The notes under the pieces: model-generated | The model's input: the letters and a program-made list of their open reading frames with translations, nothing else | Told to the model about the DNA's origin: nothing | The model's database searches: none | Part shown: positions 14,453-64,000 of the stretch, piece by piece | Layout: every line of letters begins with the position of its first letter | Numbering within the stretch: position 1 is the first letter of the stretch | Translations under genes and position numbers: made by a program | Virus record (IMG/VR): IMGVR_UViG_3300047202_000060 | Reading direction: 5' to 3' (one strand) | Source of the DNA: a virus | Lineage: Duplodnaviria; Heunggongvirae; Uroviricota; Caudoviricetes | DNA length: 64,000 nucleotides

Positions 14453-14655
14453 GTAGTTCCAACCTTACTAGATTGTTCGCTTTCTTCCTTATAAGTGTTA
14501 CGGTTTTCCAGTTTATCTAGCCTAACCTTTATTTCATCTATTTCACAATAGAGTTGCTTAATCCAAACATATTGAGCGTGAGATTGTTTATTCCGTGGTC
14601 TGATTCTCGCTGGACGGTTGAACTTTTTGTTTTTCTCGTTTTTTTCTTTCTGCAT
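14449..14655 (-). CDS. Small hypothetical protein
   Basis: Overlapping start/stop with its neighbours. Confidence 0.35.
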   Translation of the reverse strand: MQKEKNEKNKKFNRPARIRPRNKQSHAQYVWIKQLYCEIDEIKVRLDKLENRNTYKEESEQSSKVGTT

Positions 14656-14752
14656 ATTCGTATTGTCTCCTTAAATTTTCTAAATCCATATCCCATTTTT
14701 CTTGAGGGATTTCTTTCCTTCTAGGTCTATTTTTACGCTGGTTCTTATTCAT
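14588..14752 (-). CDS. Small basic hypothetical protein (MNKNQRKNRPRR...)
   Basis: ATG 14752 overlaps the primase stop; the longer track ORF start lies inside the primase gene. Confidence 0.35.
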   Translation of the reverse strand: MNKNQRKNRPRRKEIPQEKWDMDLENLRRQYEYAERKKREKQKVQPSSENQTTE

Positions 14753-15896
14753 TTTTTTCTTTCCTTCGGTTATATATTGAACATTGTAATTTGTCGCACC
14801 AGTTGAGGTCTTCAATTGTAGTGCAACGATATGGCTTCCATTTATGACTCTTTTCGATTTCTGGAACTTTATTTTTGAAAAACCAATCAAGTTGAGTACG
14901 ACAATGACCACTAGGATTATCCCCATCATAATCATGAAAACATTTAAAAAGTTCTAACATTTTATCATAAGTATTATATCCAGCCCAATATGCTTCAAGT
15001 TCAAGAGCTAAACGCATTTGGTGGGGCATTTCCCCAGACTCCATTCTCCGTTTAAAACATGGTCTAATTTCTCCAACAAATCCATGTTTTATTTCCCAAT
15101 TCCCTTTATGTTCTTCTTGTCTTTTAATAATTTCGAGTTCTCTCTTTTTGATTGCATCATATGCTAAACCAACCGCCCGCAACCAATTTGTATCTTTCAG
15201 ACCATTTAATCTAAAATCATCTATACCACGAAACTTAGCCTTTATAATCTTTTCTTCTTCTATCCCATCAACTAAATAACATTCTTCACCGCTTACTTCA
15301 TGAATTGAAGTTGGTATTCTACACATTCGTTTTAAATCTCCAACAACCGCAGTATCGAGATATTTATAACCACCTTTTTTGTCCCGCATAAATTCACGTT
15401 GAAGTTGGTAATATGTCTCTTTAAGAACTTCTTCATTATTATCTGTCACCGTGTAAACTTTGTCAAGATAGATATAAACATGAAAACCTTTTCTTGTTTT
15501 TACCGCGAGTGGAATAATACCTCTTCCCTTTAACTTTGATAAGAAAAAGCCAACTTCTTTTTGGCATTCCTTTTTTCTTTTCTCATAAACGGCTTCTCGT
15601 TTAGCTGGGTTTTTTACTCTCTGTTCCAACTGTTTTACAAAAGTTTTATTTGCATAATCGAAGTCGAAAAATAATCTCTCTATTCCAGAAACCTTTTCGA
15701 AAGCACTTCTAGGATTAACACTAATAAATGCTGGTAATTTTTTTTCCTCTGCAAAACTCATACATTCAAATATATCATTTGGATTATCTGTAAAATATCT
15801 CTTCCGTCCTTCAAACGGTGGATTACCAAGTTCTCTACCAAACATTCCAAAAAATTCGAGAAGAAATTGTTCTTTAGATATGTGATCTTTATCCAA
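14745..15896 (-). CDS. Archaeo-eukaryotic primase, probably a PriS catalytic domain fused to a PriL-like Fe-S C-terminal domain
   Basis: AEP motifs RLFFDFD, KTRKGFHVY, GDLKRMCRIP; C-terminus RPCF...MPHQMRL...YRCTTIEDLNWCDKLQC with four spaced Cys. Confidence 0.85.
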   Translation of the reverse strand: MDKDHISKEQFLLEFFGMFGRELGNPPFEGRKRYFTDNPNDIFECMSFAEEKKLPAFISVNPRSAFEKVSGIERLFFDFDYANKTFVKQLEQRVKNPAKREAVYEKRKKECQKEVGFFLSKLKGRGIIPLAVKTRKGFHVYIYLDKVYTVTDNNEEVLKETYYQLQREFMRDKKGGYKYLDTAVVGDLKRMCRIPTSIHEVSGEECYLVDGIEEEKIIKAKFRGIDDFRLNGLKDTNWLRAVGLAYDAIKKRELEIIKRQEEHKGNWEIKHGFVGEIRPCFKRRMESGEMPHQMRLALELEAYWAGYNTYDKMLELFKCFHDYDGDNPSGHCRTQLDWFFKNKVPEIEKSHKWKPYRCTTIEDLNWCDKLQCSIYNRRKEKNE

Positions 15897-16047
15897 TTAG
15901 ATTATCCTCACAATTATAGTCAGCACGTTTAATAAACATCTGTTGCCAATAATTAATACATCTTCGTCCTTCTGTCTTTCTAGCATATGGACATTCGTCA
16001 CAAGTTATCCATGTACCATCTGGTTTTGTAAAAACATTTTTATCCAT
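15889..16047 (-). CDS. Small Cys-containing protein (52 aa, below the track cut-off)
   Basis: MDKNVFTKPDGTWITCDECPYARK...; both ends overlap the neighbouring genes. Confidence 0.4.
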   Translation of the reverse strand: MDKNVFTKPDGTWITCDECPYARKTEGRRCINYWQQMFIKRADYNCEDNLIG

Positions 16048-60611: not shown

Positions 60612-60692
60612 AATTCCTCTTTTTTCTTGTTCAGAGGGAAAGTTAAAAGAAGTATTTAAAACTTTTGCCTGAATTTATCAAAAACAGTTTAG

Positions 60693-60768
60693 AGCGAGTG
60701 GAAGGATTTGAACCTTCGATTAGCGGTGTTGCGGACCGCTCCGTTTAACCAGACTTCAGCACACTCGC
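60693..60768 (-). tRNA. tRNA-Cys(GCA), C33 variant
   Basis: Acceptor GCGAGTG/CACTCGC, U73; anticodon arm GCGGT-CCGCAAC-ACCGC. Confidence 0.9.
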
Positions 60769-60778
60769 ACAAAGTTAA

Positions 60779-60867
60779 TGGCGGTAGGTGAGAGATTCGA
60801 ACTCTCGGTTCCACATGGGAACGCTGGTTTAGCAAACCAGTACCTTAAACCACTCAGTCAACCTACC
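60779..60867 (-). tRNA. tRNA-Ser(GCT)
   Basis: CTGGT-TTGCTAA-ACCAG, long variable arm, G73, encoded CCA. Confidence 0.95.
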
Positions 60868-60873
60868 ATAAAG

Positions 60874-60962
60874 TGGCGACAGGGAGAGGATTTGAACCTC
60901 TATCTCACATAAGGAGACACCGTTTTCAGGACGGGTGCAATACCTGATTCTGCCACCCTGCC
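60874..60962 (-). tRNA. tRNA-Ser(TGA), C33 variant
   Basis: Loop CCTGAAA, long variable arm, G73, encoded CCA. Confidence 0.85.
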
Positions 60963-61105
60963 ACAAACGGACAAAAAATTTAGGCTGACGATTTGGAATA
61001 ACATCTGGACTGACTGATACCCAAGTCATGATAACTAGGAAGAGTTTTGAATATCATATCAATCACTTGTTCTAAGTATAGTATCAAACACCTATATAAA
61101 CCTTT

Positions 61106-61179
61106 TGGTTGCGGGAGACAGAGTTAAACTGTCGCTATTGGATTATGAGTCCAATTGACTGTCGTTATCTTATCCCGCA
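61106..61179 (-). tRNA. tRNA-Met/Ile2(CAT) with atypical D-arm and T-loop
   Basis: TTGGA-CTCATAA-TCCAA; acceptor TGCGGGA/TCCCGCA; encoded CCA; weak D-arm. Confidence 0.7.
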
Positions 61180-61551
61180 TCACTCGGACCAAATTATTTT
61201 CCAATTACTTTTTGCTTTACATAAGTCTTTTGCTTTATGAAGACTATTACAGACCATACATCGAACCTCAAGATCGTTAGTTTCTCTTCTTCCAGCCAGA
61301 ATATCCAGATAGAATTGTTTTTGGCATCGATTCTTTCTATTCATCTCTTGATTCCCGCCGCCGTTGATGTGGTTGATTTCTAATATTGAATATTCTATAC
61401 ATCCACAATTGACACATTTCCCGCCAAGCAAATCAATGACTTTCTTTCTGATTTTATCATAATATCTTTTATGGGAAACCCTATTTCTCTTAGCCCAATC
61501 TCTTTGAAATTTTCTTTGTTTATTCGCATCTTTGTAAGGCATATTTATCAT
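61180..61551 (-). CDS. HNH endonuclease (family A, copy 3) inserted in the tRNA array
   Basis: LLGGKCVNCG...LEINHINGGG...EVRCMVCNSLHK; its stop abuts tRNA-Met. Confidence 0.75.
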   Translation of the reverse strand: MINMPYKDANKQRKFQRDWAKRNRVSHKRYYDKIRKKVIDLLGGKCVNCGCIEYSILEINHINGGGNQEMNRKNRCQKQFYLDILAGRRETNDLEVRCMVCNSLHKAKDLCKAKSNWKIIWSE

Positions 61552-61563
61552 ATAACTATAATG

Positions 61564-61595
61564 GGTTCGACATATTTAAGTCTTTCTGTCGAACC
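61564..61595. repeat. 9-bp inverted repeat enclosing the TATA box of the HNH gene
   Basis: GGTTCGACA-(14 nt, tatttaagtctttc)-TGTCGAACC. Confidence 0.7.
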
Positions 61596-61603
61596 TTAGT
61601 TAA

Positions 61604-61757
61604 TACGGGCGGGGAGACTTGCACTCCCACAGCAACTAAGCAAGGGGTTTGCTCTTTCTGGGAATTGAATCTTAGCCATCCAGACATGGATTTGAGCCAT
61701 CCAGATTTAAGCCATCCAGACTTACGTTCTCTGGGTTTTCTGATTCCCTACGCCCGC
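61604..61757 (-). tRNA. tRNA-Leu gene with BHB introns at 29/30 and 36/37 and three alternative anticodon micro-exons (TAA 61707-61713, CAA 61692-61698, AAG 61671-61677)
   Basis: Acceptor GCGGGCG/CGCCCGT, A73, D-arm, Leu-type variable arm, T-arm; joining the exons gives the stem GAGGG/CCCTT around a CT-NNN-AC loop. Confidence 0.8.
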
Positions 61758-61877
61758 ATACCCTAACCACGACCCGTGTTGCTCGACACACTCATCGCGT
61801 GAAGAATCGTGGTATAACCTTATTATATGACAATACTACTATATAAACCTTTCTATAGAAGTAACATGCTAAAATAT

Positions 61878-61951
61878 TGGCGGATATGGTGGGAATTGAA
61901 CCCGCGCTATCACCGTGACAGGATGACGTGCTACCACTACACTACATATCC
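61878..61951 (-). tRNA. tRNA-Asp(GTC)
   Basis: TCATC-CTGTCAC-GGTGA, G73, CCA. Confidence 0.9.
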
Positions 61952-61956
61952 ATTAC

Positions 61957-62031
61957 TGGTCCTACTGGACTGAGTTGCACAGTCATCATTCGGTTTACAG
62001 CCGAAGGTCCTATCTGTTAGACGACAGCAGG
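61957..62031 (-). tRNA. tRNA-Tyr(GTA), archaeal type
   Basis: C1-G72, A73, short variable loop, TTCGG-CTGTAAA-CCGAA; G55. Confidence 0.9.
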
Positions 62032-62039
62032 GCAATTGA

Positions 62040-62114
62040 TGGTGGGGCATCACCGAGTCGCACGGTGTCCATGCGGGTCCAAACCGCAGATGCACCCTGT
62101 CACACCTATGCCCC
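62040..62114 (-). tRNA. tRNA-Pro(TGG)
   Basis: TGCGG-TTTGGAC-CCGCA; A37; G55; CCA. Confidence 0.9.
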
Positions 62115-62118
62115 ATAG

Positions 62119-62195
62119 TGGTGGTCCCGCCTAGAGTTGAACTAGGTCTCAGACTTTGTAAGAGTCTGGTGCTAATTCCGTTACACTACGAGACC
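62119..62195 (-). tRNA. tRNA-Val(TAC)
   Basis: AGACT-CTTACAA-AGTCT; CCA. Confidence 0.9.
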
Positions 62196-62197
62196 GA

Positions 62198-62272
62198 TGG
62201 TGGGGTAGTAGAGGATTCGAACCTCTGTTTCTGGTTTTGGAGACCAGAGCCTTCCTATTGACTGAACACCCC
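62198..62272 (-). tRNA. tRNA-Trp(CCA)
   Basis: CTGGT-CTCCAAA-ACCAG; one-nt acceptor bulge; CCA. Confidence 0.85.
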
Positions 62273-62273
62273 A

Positions 62274-62349
62274 TGGCGGAGATGTAAGGAGTCGAACCCT
62301 AACCTTTCAGCTTCGAAGGCTGATATGCTATCCATTACACCACATCTCC
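62274..62349 (-). tRNA. tRNA-Arg(TCG)
   Basis: TCAGC-CTTCGAA-GCTGA; CCA. Confidence 0.95.
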
Positions 62350-62352
62350 AAA

Positions 62353-62425
62353 CGCCGCCCGTAGGAATCGAACCTACACCTTCCGCCTTAACAGGGCGGT
62401 ACACTCACCATTATGCTAGAGCGGC
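62353..62425 (-). tRNA. tRNA-Asn(GTT)
   Basis: CCGCC-CTGTTAA-GGCGG; G73. Confidence 0.95.
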
Positions 62426-62428
62426 AAG

Positions 62429-62501
62429 TGCCGACTAGCGGAGTCGAACCGCTGTCATACCCGTGTTTCAGACGGGCGAACTCCCGTTGTTCTAAGTCGG
62501 C
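62429..62501 (-). tRNA. tRNA-Phe(GAA)
   Basis: CCCGT-CTGAAAC-ACGGG; A73. Confidence 0.9.
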
Positions 62502-62505
62502 ATAG

Positions 62506-62576
62506 TTGGTAAGGCGGGAGTTGGACCCGCTCTAATGGCTTCACAGACCATTGTGCTACTGTTACACTACATACCG
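62506..62576 (-). tRNA. tRNA-His(GTG) with imperfect acceptor stem
   Basis: ATGGT-CTGTGAA-GCCAT; two acceptor mismatches; C55. Confidence 0.7.
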
Positions 62577-62578
62577 AA

Positions 62579-62652
62579 AGGACCATACGGGATTTGAACC
62601 CGTGTTTGCGGATTAAAGGTCCGCCGCACTAACCTGACTATGCTAATGGTCC
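62579..62652 (-). tRNA. tRNA-Lys(TTT), C33 variant
   Basis: GCGGA-CCTTTAA-TCCGC. Confidence 0.9.
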
Positions 62653-62657
62653 ACGAG

Positions 62658-62730
62658 TGCACCTATTGGGATTTGAACCCAAATTCTCGGATTAAGGGTC
62701 CGATGTACTGCCTGATTATACGATAGGTGC
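62658..62730 (-). tRNA. tRNA-Lys(CTT), C33 variant
   Basis: TCGGA-CCCTTAA-TCCGA. Confidence 0.9.
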
Positions 62731-62737
62731 TCATAGA

Positions 62738-62810
62738 TGGGCGATGGTGGAGTTGAACCACCTTCAACAGACTTATAAGGCTCTGTATGCTACCGTTACA
62801 TTATTCGCCC
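62738..62810 (-). tRNA. tRNA-Ile(TAT) with a bulged G in the anticodon stem
   Basis: CAGA(G)C-CTTATAA-GTCTG; acceptor GGGCGAA/ATCGCCC, A73. Confidence 0.75.
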
Positions 62811-62815
62811 GCTAT

Positions 62816-62890
62816 TGGTGCGGATGTCGGGAATTGCACCCGAACCACAACCTTGGAAAGGTCATTATGCAACTATTACACTTCATCCGC
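62816..62890 (-). tRNA. tRNA-Gly(TCC)
   Basis: TGACC-TTTCCAA-GGTTG; G55; CCA. Confidence 0.9.
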
Positions 62891-62895
62891 ATTAC

Positions 62896-62970
62896 TGGTG
62901 CAAGAGGCGGGAATCGGACCCACGCCTTAGACTCGGCAAGTCCACATGCTACCACTAACACCACTCTTGC
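62896..62970 (-). tRNA. tRNA-Gly(GCC)
   Basis: TGGAC-TTGCCGA-GTCTA; C55; CCA. Confidence 0.9.
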
Positions 62971-62971
62971 A

Positions 62972-63048
62972 TGGTGGAGTAAGAGGGATTTGAACCCTCA
63001 CCTTCTGTTTGCAAAACAGATGTGCTACCAGATTGACACTAAAACCCC
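62972..63048 (-). tRNA. tRNA-Ala(TGC)
   Basis: TCTGT-TTTGCAA-ACAGA; G3:U70 identity pair; CCA. Confidence 0.9.
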
Positions 63049-63052
63049 ATAG

Positions 63053-63183
63053 TGGTCCCGTGGGGAGTTGAACCCCAACTCACAGGTTTCTCCGTCTGGT
63101 AAACTATTTTTATTAGTTTACCACCTGAGAGCCTTTGAGCGACTTGAAAGCCTGTGCTCCTTGTCCGTTTAGATTACGGGACC
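63053..63183 (-). tRNA. tRNA-Glu with BHB intron(s): TTC via one 57-nt intron (63088-63144), or CTC via 19-nt (63135-63153) plus 38-nt (63088-63125) introns
   Basis: Stem ACAGG/CCTGT; a second AGGCTCTCA element lies inside the intron; BHB helices CTTT or CTCT with GGAG, and GAGC/GCTC. Confidence 0.85.
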
Positions 63184-63186
63184 GAA

Positions 63187-63258
63187 AGCCGCTACCAGAA
63201 GTTGCATCTGGACCCAGAGTTTACAAAACTCTCATGCTACTGTTAACACTATAGCGGC
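63187..63258 (-). tRNA. tRNA-Thr(TGT)
   Basis: AGAGT-TTTGTAA-ACTCT; U73; G55. Confidence 0.9.
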
Positions 63259-63259
63259 A

Positions 63260-63335
63260 TGGCACAAGTGGAAGGATTCGAACCCTCATCTCTCACGTTA
63301 GAACCGTGATGCTCTATCCATTAAGCTACACCTGT
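63260..63335 (-). tRNA. tRNA-Arg(TCT)
   Basis: TCACG-GTTCTAA-CGTGA (G32); CCA. Confidence 0.9.
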
Positions 63336-63370
63336 ATTTGTGAAGTCAATTGAATGCAGTTGAAATCAAT

Positions 63371-63485
63371 TGGTAGTGGGTGGCAGATTCGAACTGCCCC
63401 TACAAGCTATCTCCATTGGACAATATCAGAGGCTTAGACCCCAATTTCAAAGGCTTGTCTCCTTATCCAAATAGATTAACCCACT
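63371..63485 (-). tRNA. tRNA-Gln with BHB intron(s): TTG via one 38-nt intron (63409-63446), or CTG via 21-nt (63434-63454) plus 17-nt (63409-63425) introns
   Basis: A1-U72, stem CAAGC/GCTTG; a second GCCTCTGA element lies inside the intron; strict BHB at 29/30 (AGAC/GTCT); CCA. Confidence 0.88.
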
Positions 63486-63528
63486 ATATCCATAATGCCA
63501 ATGCAATCGACCACGGCAAGACAAAGAA

Positions 63529-63660
63529 ATGATGGCAAGAAAATCGTGATAATCTTGACGGGTCTTACTGTTGTCTTCGCTTACCGTGATCTGCTGGTTT
63601 GGCGACTGTCGTATTAAAATACCAAAACTCGAAACGTTCTATACGACTTTTTGCCATCAT
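63529..63660 (-). ncRNA. Candidate structured RNA or leader upstream of the tRNA array
   Basis: About 18-bp terminal stem ATGATGGCAA-AAAGTCGT / ACGATTTT-C-TTGCCATCAT; TATA box at about 63705-63716. Confidence 0.4.
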
Positions 63661-63751
63661 AGCTAAGACCACGTTTATAGAGAGTGTAATATAATACAAA
63701 ACAAGTATATAAATGTTTCGGTAGAAAGACCATACTCAATAGTGTCATAAA

Positions 63752-63835
63752 GCTGGAAGGAGTATCTGACCGCCGCCTTATTACTCCAATGACGGATAAG
63801 GCTTATTTTACCAGCCGATGACTGTGAGATGTCAT
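63752..63835. ncRNA. Candidate pseudoknotted RNA element
   Basis: Crossing helices GGAGTA/TACTCC and GCCTTAT/ATAAGGC inside GCTGG/CCAGC, followed by the hairpin ATGAC/GTCAT. Confidence 0.45.
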
Positions 63836-63844
63836 AGGTTGGAC

Positions 63845-64000
63845 AGGATTCACCGTTCAGCGCGGTTCTTACGTTTACGGGGAGCATTCCAAATCAGCAC
63901 GGTCTAGGTCTGCAACCCCGCCGTACCTACATTTTCTTCCCCGTTACTGCCTAATACCAGAGGGTTTGTGGTTATCCAACCCGTGACTGTGAAAAGGGTG
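63845..64000 (-). ncRNA. 3' part of a structured RNA, possibly RNase P RNA-like; truncated by the window edge
   Basis: GC-richer and non-coding; GC..GAATGCTCCCC followed by AGAACCGCGCTGA resembles the archaeal RNase P P2 3' strand and CR-V. Confidence 0.3.

Follow-up and report, generated by a model that had tools for sequence, protein, structure and literature searches.

Analysis of a 64,000-nucleotide stretch of DNA from a tailed virus (Caudoviricetes; IMG/VR record IMGVR_UViG_3300047202_000060), referred to here as the window, revealed the front part and the back part of a tRNA-Leu gene, separated by an insert of 80 nt, on the minus strand (positions 61757 to 61604, 154 nt). The insert contains three exact copies of the pattern CTGGATGGCT-NNN-A, in which NNN is TAA, CAA, and AAG. 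This pattern was matched three times in the window and not once in 100 shuffles (0 expected). A preliminary description of the locus had divided it into an exon 1, three repeats of the form CTGG-AT|GGCT-NNN|A, and an exon 3, and this division proved correct to the base on the minus strand. We consider it moderately probable that the locus is a working composite gene for tRNA-Leu, that it has a promoter of its own, and that host enzymes would produce more than one isoacceptor from its single precursor by alternative splicing at bulge-helix-bulge (BHB) motifs.

Organization of the tRNA-Leu locus

Exon 1 (61729 to 61757, 29 nt; all parts of the gene are given for the minus strand) comprises the 7-nt 5' strand of the acceptor stem, a D arm with a 3-bp stem, and G27-A28-G29, and it ends in CCCAG-AG. 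The CCAG of this end (61734 to 61731, tRNA positions 24 to 27) and a 3-nt bulge, AG|A, form a putative docking site (61728 to 61734), and this bulge places the predicted 5' cut after G29 (61729). The D arm also contains GGGAAT (61743 to 61748), the 5' strand of a possible 6-bp clamp. Exon 1 is followed by a mini-hairpin, ACGTAAGT (61720 to 61727), which provides the AC/GT inner helix of the first 5' BHB motif. Cassette 1 (61706 to 61719), cassette 2 (61691 to 61704), and cassette 3 (61670 to 61683) each consist of a CTGG selector, a bulge AT|G, a micro-exon of 7 nt, and an A. The micro-exons are GGCTTAA (61713 to 61707, anticodon UAA), GGCTCAA (61698 to 61692, anticodon CAA), and GGCTAAG (61677 to 61671, anticodon AAG). 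Cassettes 2 and 3 are separated by the spacer TCCATGT (61684 to 61690), the final ATGT of which can pair with ACGT past the 5' bulge to form the inner helix of cassette 3. The 3' part of the intron (61649 to 61669) contains the clamp partner ATTCCC (61665 to 61660), the 3' docking strand GAGC (61654 to 61651), and a bulge AA|A. Pairing of GAGC with G31-C32-U33-N34 of a cassette places the predicted 3' cut before A37 (61648). Exon 3 (61604 to 61648, 45 nt) starts with ACCCCTT and contains A37, C38, the CCCTT stem strand, a variable arm of 13 nt, the T arm with the T loop TGCAAGT, the acceptor strand, and A73. The window gene ends without an encoded CCA (GTATTA); all fetched relatives encode it (GTACCA). 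The unspliced gene was not called by ARAGORN, with or without the intron option, or by Rfam.

A BRE-like (transcription factor B recognition element) GAAAGG and the TATA box TTTATATA were read from the sequence at 61840 to 61853, about 85 nt upstream of the tRNA 5' end. The stretch of about 80 nt between the TATA site and exon 1 (61839 to 61758) includes a leader. Motifs of the form CGAAA-N-TTTAAATA, like the window site, are found upstream of the homologous Leu genes of two related contigs (L005 and L015). We infer that the site at 61840 to 61853 acts as an archaeal-type promoter.

Predicted tRNA products and codon usage

The three predicted products (UAA, CAA, and AAG) are each 81 nt long and share the anticodon stem GAGGG/CCCTT and the discriminator A73. 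ARAGORN called each of them a class II tRNA-Leu, in agreement with the type II products of the preliminary description. In total, 20 of 21 predicted products were called tRNA-Leu. Their variable arms are 12 to 14 nt long, with a covarying stem (GC/GC, GTC/GAC, and GCGT/ACGC), and A73 is present in all homologues. An A and a G at the tip of the variable arm are reportedly an identity feature for LeuRS, according to work on the Haloferax and Pyrococcus enzymes. The AG that had been put forward as such a determinant is indeed present in the window, as well as in L002, L015, and L024; it is absent in the close relatives L008, L010, and L005.

The Leu codons in the open reading frames (ORFs) of the window are CTT (30%), TTA (26%), TTG (20%), CTA (11%), CTC (7%), and CTG (4%). 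The top three (CTT, TTA, and TTG) are thus exactly complementary, by Watson-Crick pairing, to the anticodons AAG, UAA, and CAA. The suggestion that AAG might be a drifted TAG is not supported, because AAG matches the commonest codon, CUU; it is also conserved in four lineages. Editing of A34 to inosine, for which a test had been suggested at first, found no support: a deaminase encoded near the array in relatives was considered as a viral TadA-like enzyme and was rejected, as it matches dCMP deaminase (ComEB). UAA and CAA are the best-supported products; AAG is likely in the window virus, though less certain.

Conservation of the cassettes in related viruses

Related contigs (designated by L numbers) were collected from many metagenomes by means of the polymerase and a conserved 3'-exon pattern. 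A three-cassette Leu gene was present in L002 (identical in L003, L004, and L009), L007, L008, and L010 (closest PolB identity, 87%), and also in L005/L006 (PolB, 68%), L015/L021 (64%), and L024 (54%). L023 (PolB, 57%) contains a composite Leu gene of a different layout. No further Leu gene was found at any of the relatives' loci. Searches of INPHARED phages returned generic tRNA matches only, and in IMG/VR neither PolB peptides nor five DNA patterns led to a relevant match (a coding PDWMA repeat in L001 and chance matches in L025 to L028). A scan of GTDB genomes revealed only unrelated simple repeats (L016 to L020).

Comparison of the homologues revealed that the anticodon set TAA, CAA, and AAG is the same in four diverged architectures, which differ in cassette order (TAA-CAA-AAG, CAA-TAA-AAG, or TAA-AAG-CAA), spacers, and tRNA body. 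Among genes of the window type, 37 of 42 cassette columns and 67 of 75 exon columns are invariant, compared to 16 of 35 spacer columns (Fisher p = 8e-5). Cassette 1 is invariant in five window-type variants, and the spacer of cassette 3 varies among relatives, with the GT before CTGG kept. The tRNA body is diverged in L015 and L024 (acceptor strand GCTAGTG or GCGAGCG, T stem GATGG), the spacers are unrelated, and the first two cassettes are in swapped order; the anticodons are still TAA, CAA, and AAG. Across the homologues, six pairs of the acceptor and T stems have changes on both sides. These results suggest that the cassettes are probably used, because unused triplets in an intron have no reason to be conserved as a set through changes of order.

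Two relatives carry the same anticodons in other arrangements. In L023, the D arm looks normal and the CTGGATGGCT repeats are absent, and the 64-nt "intron" contains the loops CTAAGAG and CTCAAAC behind CTTAAAT. A strict hBHBh' motif (h 2, H 4, h' 6) in this gene would remove the TAA loop and join exon 1 to the AAG loop, and a canonical strict motif, CTTA/TGAG, would serve TAA. In the Leu gene of L024 (17950 to 18203, minus strand), cassette 3 is split by a nested intron of 107 nt with the central helix GGCT/AGTT, a 5-bp inner helix (GAGAG/CTCTC), and the bulges AA|A and AA|G. Cutting of this intron by the rule given below results in an exact GGCTAAG, followed by TTCCAG as in L015. Cassette 3 is also kept in L015/L021 and L023.

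Putative splice motifs of the tRNA-Leu gene

Cut sites were predicted by the rule that a 4-bp helix is flanked by two 3-nt bulges, with a cut after the second bulge base on each side. The canonical 37/38 intron is described in the same way in PMC4090602.

At the 5' motif, the docking site CCAG (bulge AG|A) can pair with the CTGG (bulge AT|G) of any cassette. The inner helix is AC/GT around GTAA (2 bp) for cassette 1, a single pair for cassette 2, and ACGT/ATGT (4 bp) for cassette 3. All of these pairings had been listed in the preliminary description, and all were found. The motif was assigned to the relaxed HBh' type because its outer helix is a single pair; in this form, the 5' intron has the 4-bp helix, the two 3-nt bulges, and the at least one flanking helix that define a BHB. 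According to the same source, relaxed hBH and HBh' motifs, as well as introns at 29/30, are known in archaea (PMC4090602).

The letters of the 5' motif covary between lineages. The base after the 5' bulge is A in the window type, C in L015, and T in L024, and the base before the three CTGG selectors is T,T,T in the window type, G,G,G in L015, and A,A,A in L024, so that nine of nine pairs hold. Because repeats can be homogenised within a lineage, this covariation was counted as three to nine observations, none of which departs from expectation. The hairpin ahead of selector 1 is likewise kept with different letters (AC/GT in the window type, CT/GG in L015, and TTG/CAA in L024), and CCCAGAG is invariant across homologues of the CCCAGAG type. 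The unbiased RNAalifold consensus of the homologues also pairs the docking site with a selector, namely, that of cassette 2. Formation of the docking helix needs an opened D stem. Every homologue allows a 6-bp helix between the D arm (GGGAAT) and the intron downstream of cassette 3 (ATTCCC), including L005, where a two-sided change gives CGGAAT/ATTCCG; this helix presumably serves as a clamp.

At the 3' motif, G31-C32-U33-N34 faces GAGC, with the bulges N35-N36|A and AA|A37. The register was chosen as the sole one that gives a 7-nt loop. As first described, the pairing GCTN/GAGC is complete for CAA (4 pairs) and includes one G:U for TAA (4 pairs); for AAG, 3 pairs form next to an A.G mismatch. 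GAGC is replaced by AAGC in L015 and by GAGT in L024, both of which are still complementary to GCU. The outer helix of this motif exists only once the 5' splice is done, and the 3' motif is the weakest part of the splicing model.

Two other registers and one other intron class were rejected. A shifted 5' register (CAGA/TCTG) yields an incorrect product and is not kept in L015 or L024, and the canonical 37/38 register for the 3' intron would give a 9-nt loop. Group I introns have a self-splicing ribozyme core of about 200 nt or more; the insert measures 80 nt, and Rfam matched no intron family anywhere in the window. When the entire precursor was folded by minimum free energy, no cloverleaf resulted, and the fold was uninformative. 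Blind enumeration of relaxed BHB motifs was far too permissive: chance motifs ran to dozens in each gene, and ARAGORN accepted 84 products for L023. Reliance was therefore placed on comparative evidence.

Composite genes for Gln, Glu, and Ser

Analysis of the other tRNA genes revealed further composite genes. A tRNA-Gln gene of the window (63371 to 63485, minus strand) contains TTG and CTG loops in one gene. Where both routes could be scored, namely, in the window, L002, L024, and L023, each of the three introns needed has a strict hBHBh' motif; for L008, the strict filter accepted the CUG route alone. Its central helices covary over five homologues (AGAC/GTCT, AATC/GGTT, and AATC/GATT), and further covariation is seen between CTTT/GGAG and CCTT/AGGG or CCTT/GGGG. 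The Gln gene is the cleanest example of the composite design, and its motifs correspond to the strict BHB definition.

A tRNA-Glu gene (63053 to 63183, minus strand) contains TTC and CTC loops in a 57-nt insert, and both of its 3' introns are strict. Ordinary Glu genes are present in L002, L008, L010, and L023; the UUC and CUC genes are adjacent in L002, L008, and L023, and only the CUC gene was seen in L010, at the edge of the fragment. The ordinary Glu genes of these four relatives suggest that composite genes arise and replace tandem genes in this virus group. The separate UUC and CUC genes kept by relatives suggest, moreover, that the Glu composite of the window is recent and replaced a tandem pair. 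Ser tRNA genes with four loops (CGA, GCT, GGA, and AGA), in differing orders, are present in L021 (13176 to 13319, minus strand) and L024 (17365 to 17586, minus strand). Their AGA loop is a second A34 anticodon, and the L024 gene has strict motifs for two joins. Judged from these genes, the composite design is general in the virus group of the window.

The virus and its tRNA array

The window is a 35% G+C stretch, and the nearest cellular relatives of its PolB are from Bathyarchaeia (46 to 47% identity). BRE/TATA-like motifs precede tRNA genes in the window and its relatives, and the relatives carry aRF1 fragments, PTH2, and FKBP26. These features indicate an archaeal virus, and its host probably belongs to the Bathyarchaeia.

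The array (60692 to 63485) contains 24 tRNA genes, which also cover other amino acids; for several of these, two isoacceptors are encoded by separate genes. No second Leu gene was found in the window array by ARAGORN, with and without introns, or by Rfam. A tRNA-Pro(TGG) gene with the T loop TGCGACT (62040 to 62114, minus strand) was missed by both programs; its counterpart was called in L002, L008, and L010.

Further observations were made in and around the arrays. In L002, the closest relative, two short ORFs (14555 to 15124, minus strand) match the N-terminal and middle parts of archaeal aRF1; they sit within the tRNA array, where the window has a 123-amino-acid (aa) ORF. The region of the window upstream of the array (63490 to 64000) has about 48% G+C, no convincing ORF, and no Rfam match, and it is 82 to 88% identical to non-coding stretches of L002 and L008; it may be a structured RNA or a regulatory region. 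In L015 (about 15420 to 15990, minus strand), a tRNA-Arg(TCG) gene is apparently interrupted just past the anticodon by about 500 nt with their own TATA-like site and a 146-aa ORF. The N terminus of this ORF resembles that of the 123-aa ORF adjoining the window Leu gene (61180 to 61551, minus strand), and the insert is possibly a mobile endonuclease-type intron.

Proposed mechanism and alternative explanations

In the mechanism proposed for the composite Leu gene, a single transcript would start from the BRE/TATA site (61853 to 61840). The one docking site (CCAG with the bulge AG|A) would pair with one of the three selectors (N-CTGG with the bulge AU|G); the D stem would open on docking, and the freed GGGAAU would be able to pair with AUUCCC of the intron. 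The host splicing endonuclease would then excise the RNA between G29 and the G30 of the chosen cassette, and an RtcB-type ligase would join the ends, which would complete the 5' strand of the anticodon stem. G31-C32-U33-N34 of the cassette would pair with GAGC at the intron end, and cuts after N36 and before A37 would drop everything downstream. End processing and, for the window copy without an encoded CCA, CCA addition would follow to give 81-nt tRNA-Leu(UAA), tRNA-Leu(CAA), and tRNA-Leu(AAG). Because CCAG-AG stays in exon 1 after the 5' splice, an intermediate with later cassettes could be spliced again, and every order of events would thereby end in a legitimate tRNA.

A wider proposal is that the virus family generally uses such genes (Leu, Gln, Glu, and Ser) as an RNA-folding switch with mutually exclusive splicing; we offer this tentatively, as a possibility with somewhat less than an even chance. 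Three selectors would compete for the docking site, and three GCUN segments would compete for the 3' docking strand. The ratio of isoacceptors would be set by folding kinetics and might respond to temperature, to the speed of transcription, or to a factor from the virus or the host, and splicing would proceed stepwise along the cassettes without dead-end products. If this holds, the viruses compress an isoacceptor set into few genes (two cassettes each for Gln and Glu, four for Ser, including AGA) and provide tRNAs with A34, a type not ordinarily used by archaeal cells.

Taken together, the shared anticodon set, the conservation of the cassettes, the covariation of docking site and selectors, the nested intron, the fit to codon usage, and the strict BHB motifs of the Gln gene suggest that the Leu gene is probably a multi-product gene. 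The design of three alternative cassettes with BHB motifs, as first described, is thus strongly supported by comparative data, with the reservation that the Leu motifs are relaxed and the products are predicted from sequence.

Several observations weigh against this reading. The outer helix of the 5' motif is only 1 bp long, as is the inner helix of cassette 2. At the 3' motif, the inner helix has 0 to 3 pairs, the outer helix (G30:C38 and G29:C39) has 2 bp and is one base out of register with the mature stem, and the central helix of AAG has 3 of 4 pairs, the mismatch being A.G or A.A. In the window-type genes, UAA was the sole route recovered by a blind scan at moderately strict BHB thresholds. 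Crude equilibrium folding placed selectors 1 and 2 within 0.5 to 3.5 kcal/mol of each other and selector 3 about 2 to 6 kcal/mol (ensemble free energy) above the better of these two; UAA and CAA would therefore be expected to be the main products, provided that cassette 3 is not favored by an earlier action of its local 3' motif. In L005/L006, cassette 3 has lost U33 (GGCAAG in L005), and the resulting product is no tRNA. In L023, no acceptable route led to the CAA loop. No splicing endonuclease or RtcB was found among 36 tested ORFs of the window, a stretch that makes up less than half of the genome. Of the EndA architectures of archaea (alpha4, alpha2, (alpha-beta)2, and epsilon2), only (alpha-beta)2 and epsilon2 are known to act on relaxed motifs (PMC5829648). 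Finally, an A at position 34 is very unusual for archaeal decoding.

Part of this evidence bears on the alternative that the locus yields a single product. One cassette, most likely the first (UAA), would be spliced via a 15-nt 5' intron and a 58-nt 3' intron, and the other two would be leftovers of a tandem duplication, kept alike by gene conversion or intron folding. The outcome of the blind scan and the decay of cassette 3 in L005 speak for this explanation; in addition, cassette 1 has a local hairpin and would fold first during transcription, and repeats can homogenise without selection on function. However, the first cassette is TAA in the window type and CAA in L015 and L024, and yet the set of three is constant; CAA alone would not serve a TTA-rich virus. 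The anticodon triplets are unpaired and free to drift, and they are nevertheless invariant. The three loops also persist in L023, whose flanks are not repeated, so that gene conversion is no possible explanation for them. Excision of the nested intron in L024 gives back the exact AAG cassette, and covariation with the docking side is seen for the base that precedes every one of the three selectors. We therefore consider a single-product gene unlikely.

The extra cassettes could also be RNA decoys, that is, mimics of the Leu anticodon loop in the intron or precursor, directed, for example, against an anticodon nuclease or a modification enzyme. This explanation draws on the hairpin of cassette 2, which can show CTCAAAT as a 7-nt loop (stem ATGG/CCAT in the window and ATGG/CCGT in L010), and on other anticodon-loop oddities in the array that the preliminary description had pointed out. 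The hairpin, however, has only 3 to 4 bp and is formed by only one cassette. Every cassette has the exact G30-G31 and C32-U33 needed for the shared anticodon stem and loop, cut-site motifs flank each cassette, and the anticodon set fits the codon usage of the virus itself. A decoy function of the cassettes is thus very unlikely.

Variation at the DNA level is more improbable still. Three perfect 10-nt direct repeats, 15 to 21 nt apart, are substrates for slippage, and recombination between them could delete cassettes, so that genomes would carry one or two and the three-cassette form would be the assembled majority. Yet independent assemblies (L002, L003, L004, L007 to L010, L005/L006, L015/L021, and L024) all contain three cassettes, and deletion is irreversible and would lose isoacceptors. 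A decaying pseudogene, in which repeat expansion broke a tRNA-Leu gene that no longer makes tRNA, would account for the failure of tRNA finders to call the gene, the unusual D and T loops, and the missing CCA of the window copy, but its probability is close to negligible given the compensatory changes in the acceptor, T, and variable arms across relatives, the conserved exons, the retention of the gene as one of only two tRNA genes in the fetched L005 stretch, and its position as the sole Leu gene in an array covering other amino acids.

Comparison with known disrupted tRNA genes and exon choice

In the literature searched (subscription journals were outside its coverage), no description of several isoacceptors from one tRNA transcript was found. 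If the multi-product reading is true, the Leu gene is the first case of alternative splicing of a tRNA in which one transcript gives several isoacceptors. It would add to the types of disrupted tRNA genes (intron-containing, split, tri-split, and permuted), and the BHB/endonuclease system would make choices besides removing insertions. It would also raise the question of how a tRNA-Leu with A34 decodes in an archaeal cell. Current tRNA finders miss such genes or give one anticodon, and the decoding capacity of archaeal viruses is consequently under-counted; that of some archaea probably is as well.

In the tri-split tRNAs of Caldivirga maquilingensis (Fujishima et al. 2009, reviewed in PMC4033280), anticodon pieces are swapped against shared 5' and 3' pieces. 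They resemble the window gene in that the products are synonymous isoacceptors, the joins are of the BHB type, including 29/30, and the archaeal splicing endonuclease acts on them. In Caldivirga, in contrast, each piece is a gene of its own with its own promoter, and joining takes place in trans via complementary leaders, whereas all pieces of the window gene lie within 154 nt behind one promoter-like site, and helices competing inside a single transcript would make the choice in cis. In its design, the window gene thus has the alternative anticodon pieces (three micro-exons) and the shared pieces (exons 1 and 3) of a tri-split tRNA and lacks the separate loci with their own promoters of split and tri-split genes.

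In the split tRNA-Glu of Nanoarchaeum equitans, one 3' half is common to two 5' halves (Randau et al. 2005, reviewed in PMC4033280). Here, too, a shared part serves two isoacceptors (UUC and CUC), and the junction motif is a relaxed BHB. The Nanoarchaeum halves are trans-spliced, however, and the whole 5' half alternates, whereas the window gene varies a 7-nt micro-exon only. Archaeal tRNA genes with multiple introns at non-canonical positions are described from Thermoproteales, Korarchaeum, and ARMAN (PMC4090602, PMC4033280). Like the window gene, they have introns at 29/30 and next to the anticodon, relaxed hBH/HBh' motifs, and short introns (15 to 58 nt). Unlike it, they are described as constitutively spliced, with one tRNA per gene; the "intron" of the window gene holds further complete micro-exons and splice motifs.

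The proposed mode of selection resembles that of the Dscam exon clusters of insects, in which a docking site and selector sequences make splicing mutually exclusive (PMC4691838, PMC6071210). In both, there is one docking sequence, a selector before each alternative exon, one possible pairing at a time, and an arrangement by tandem duplication. In the Leu gene, CCAG and the next base pair with the N-CTGG before the three cassettes in all homologues of this type. Dscam splicing is spliceosomal and eukaryotic and concerns protein products, whereas in the window gene the pairing would itself create the BHB substrate. The likeness to Dscam is an analogy and not a membership; if the multi-product reading is true, the viral gene represents a simple prokaryotic counterpart of docking/selector exon choice.

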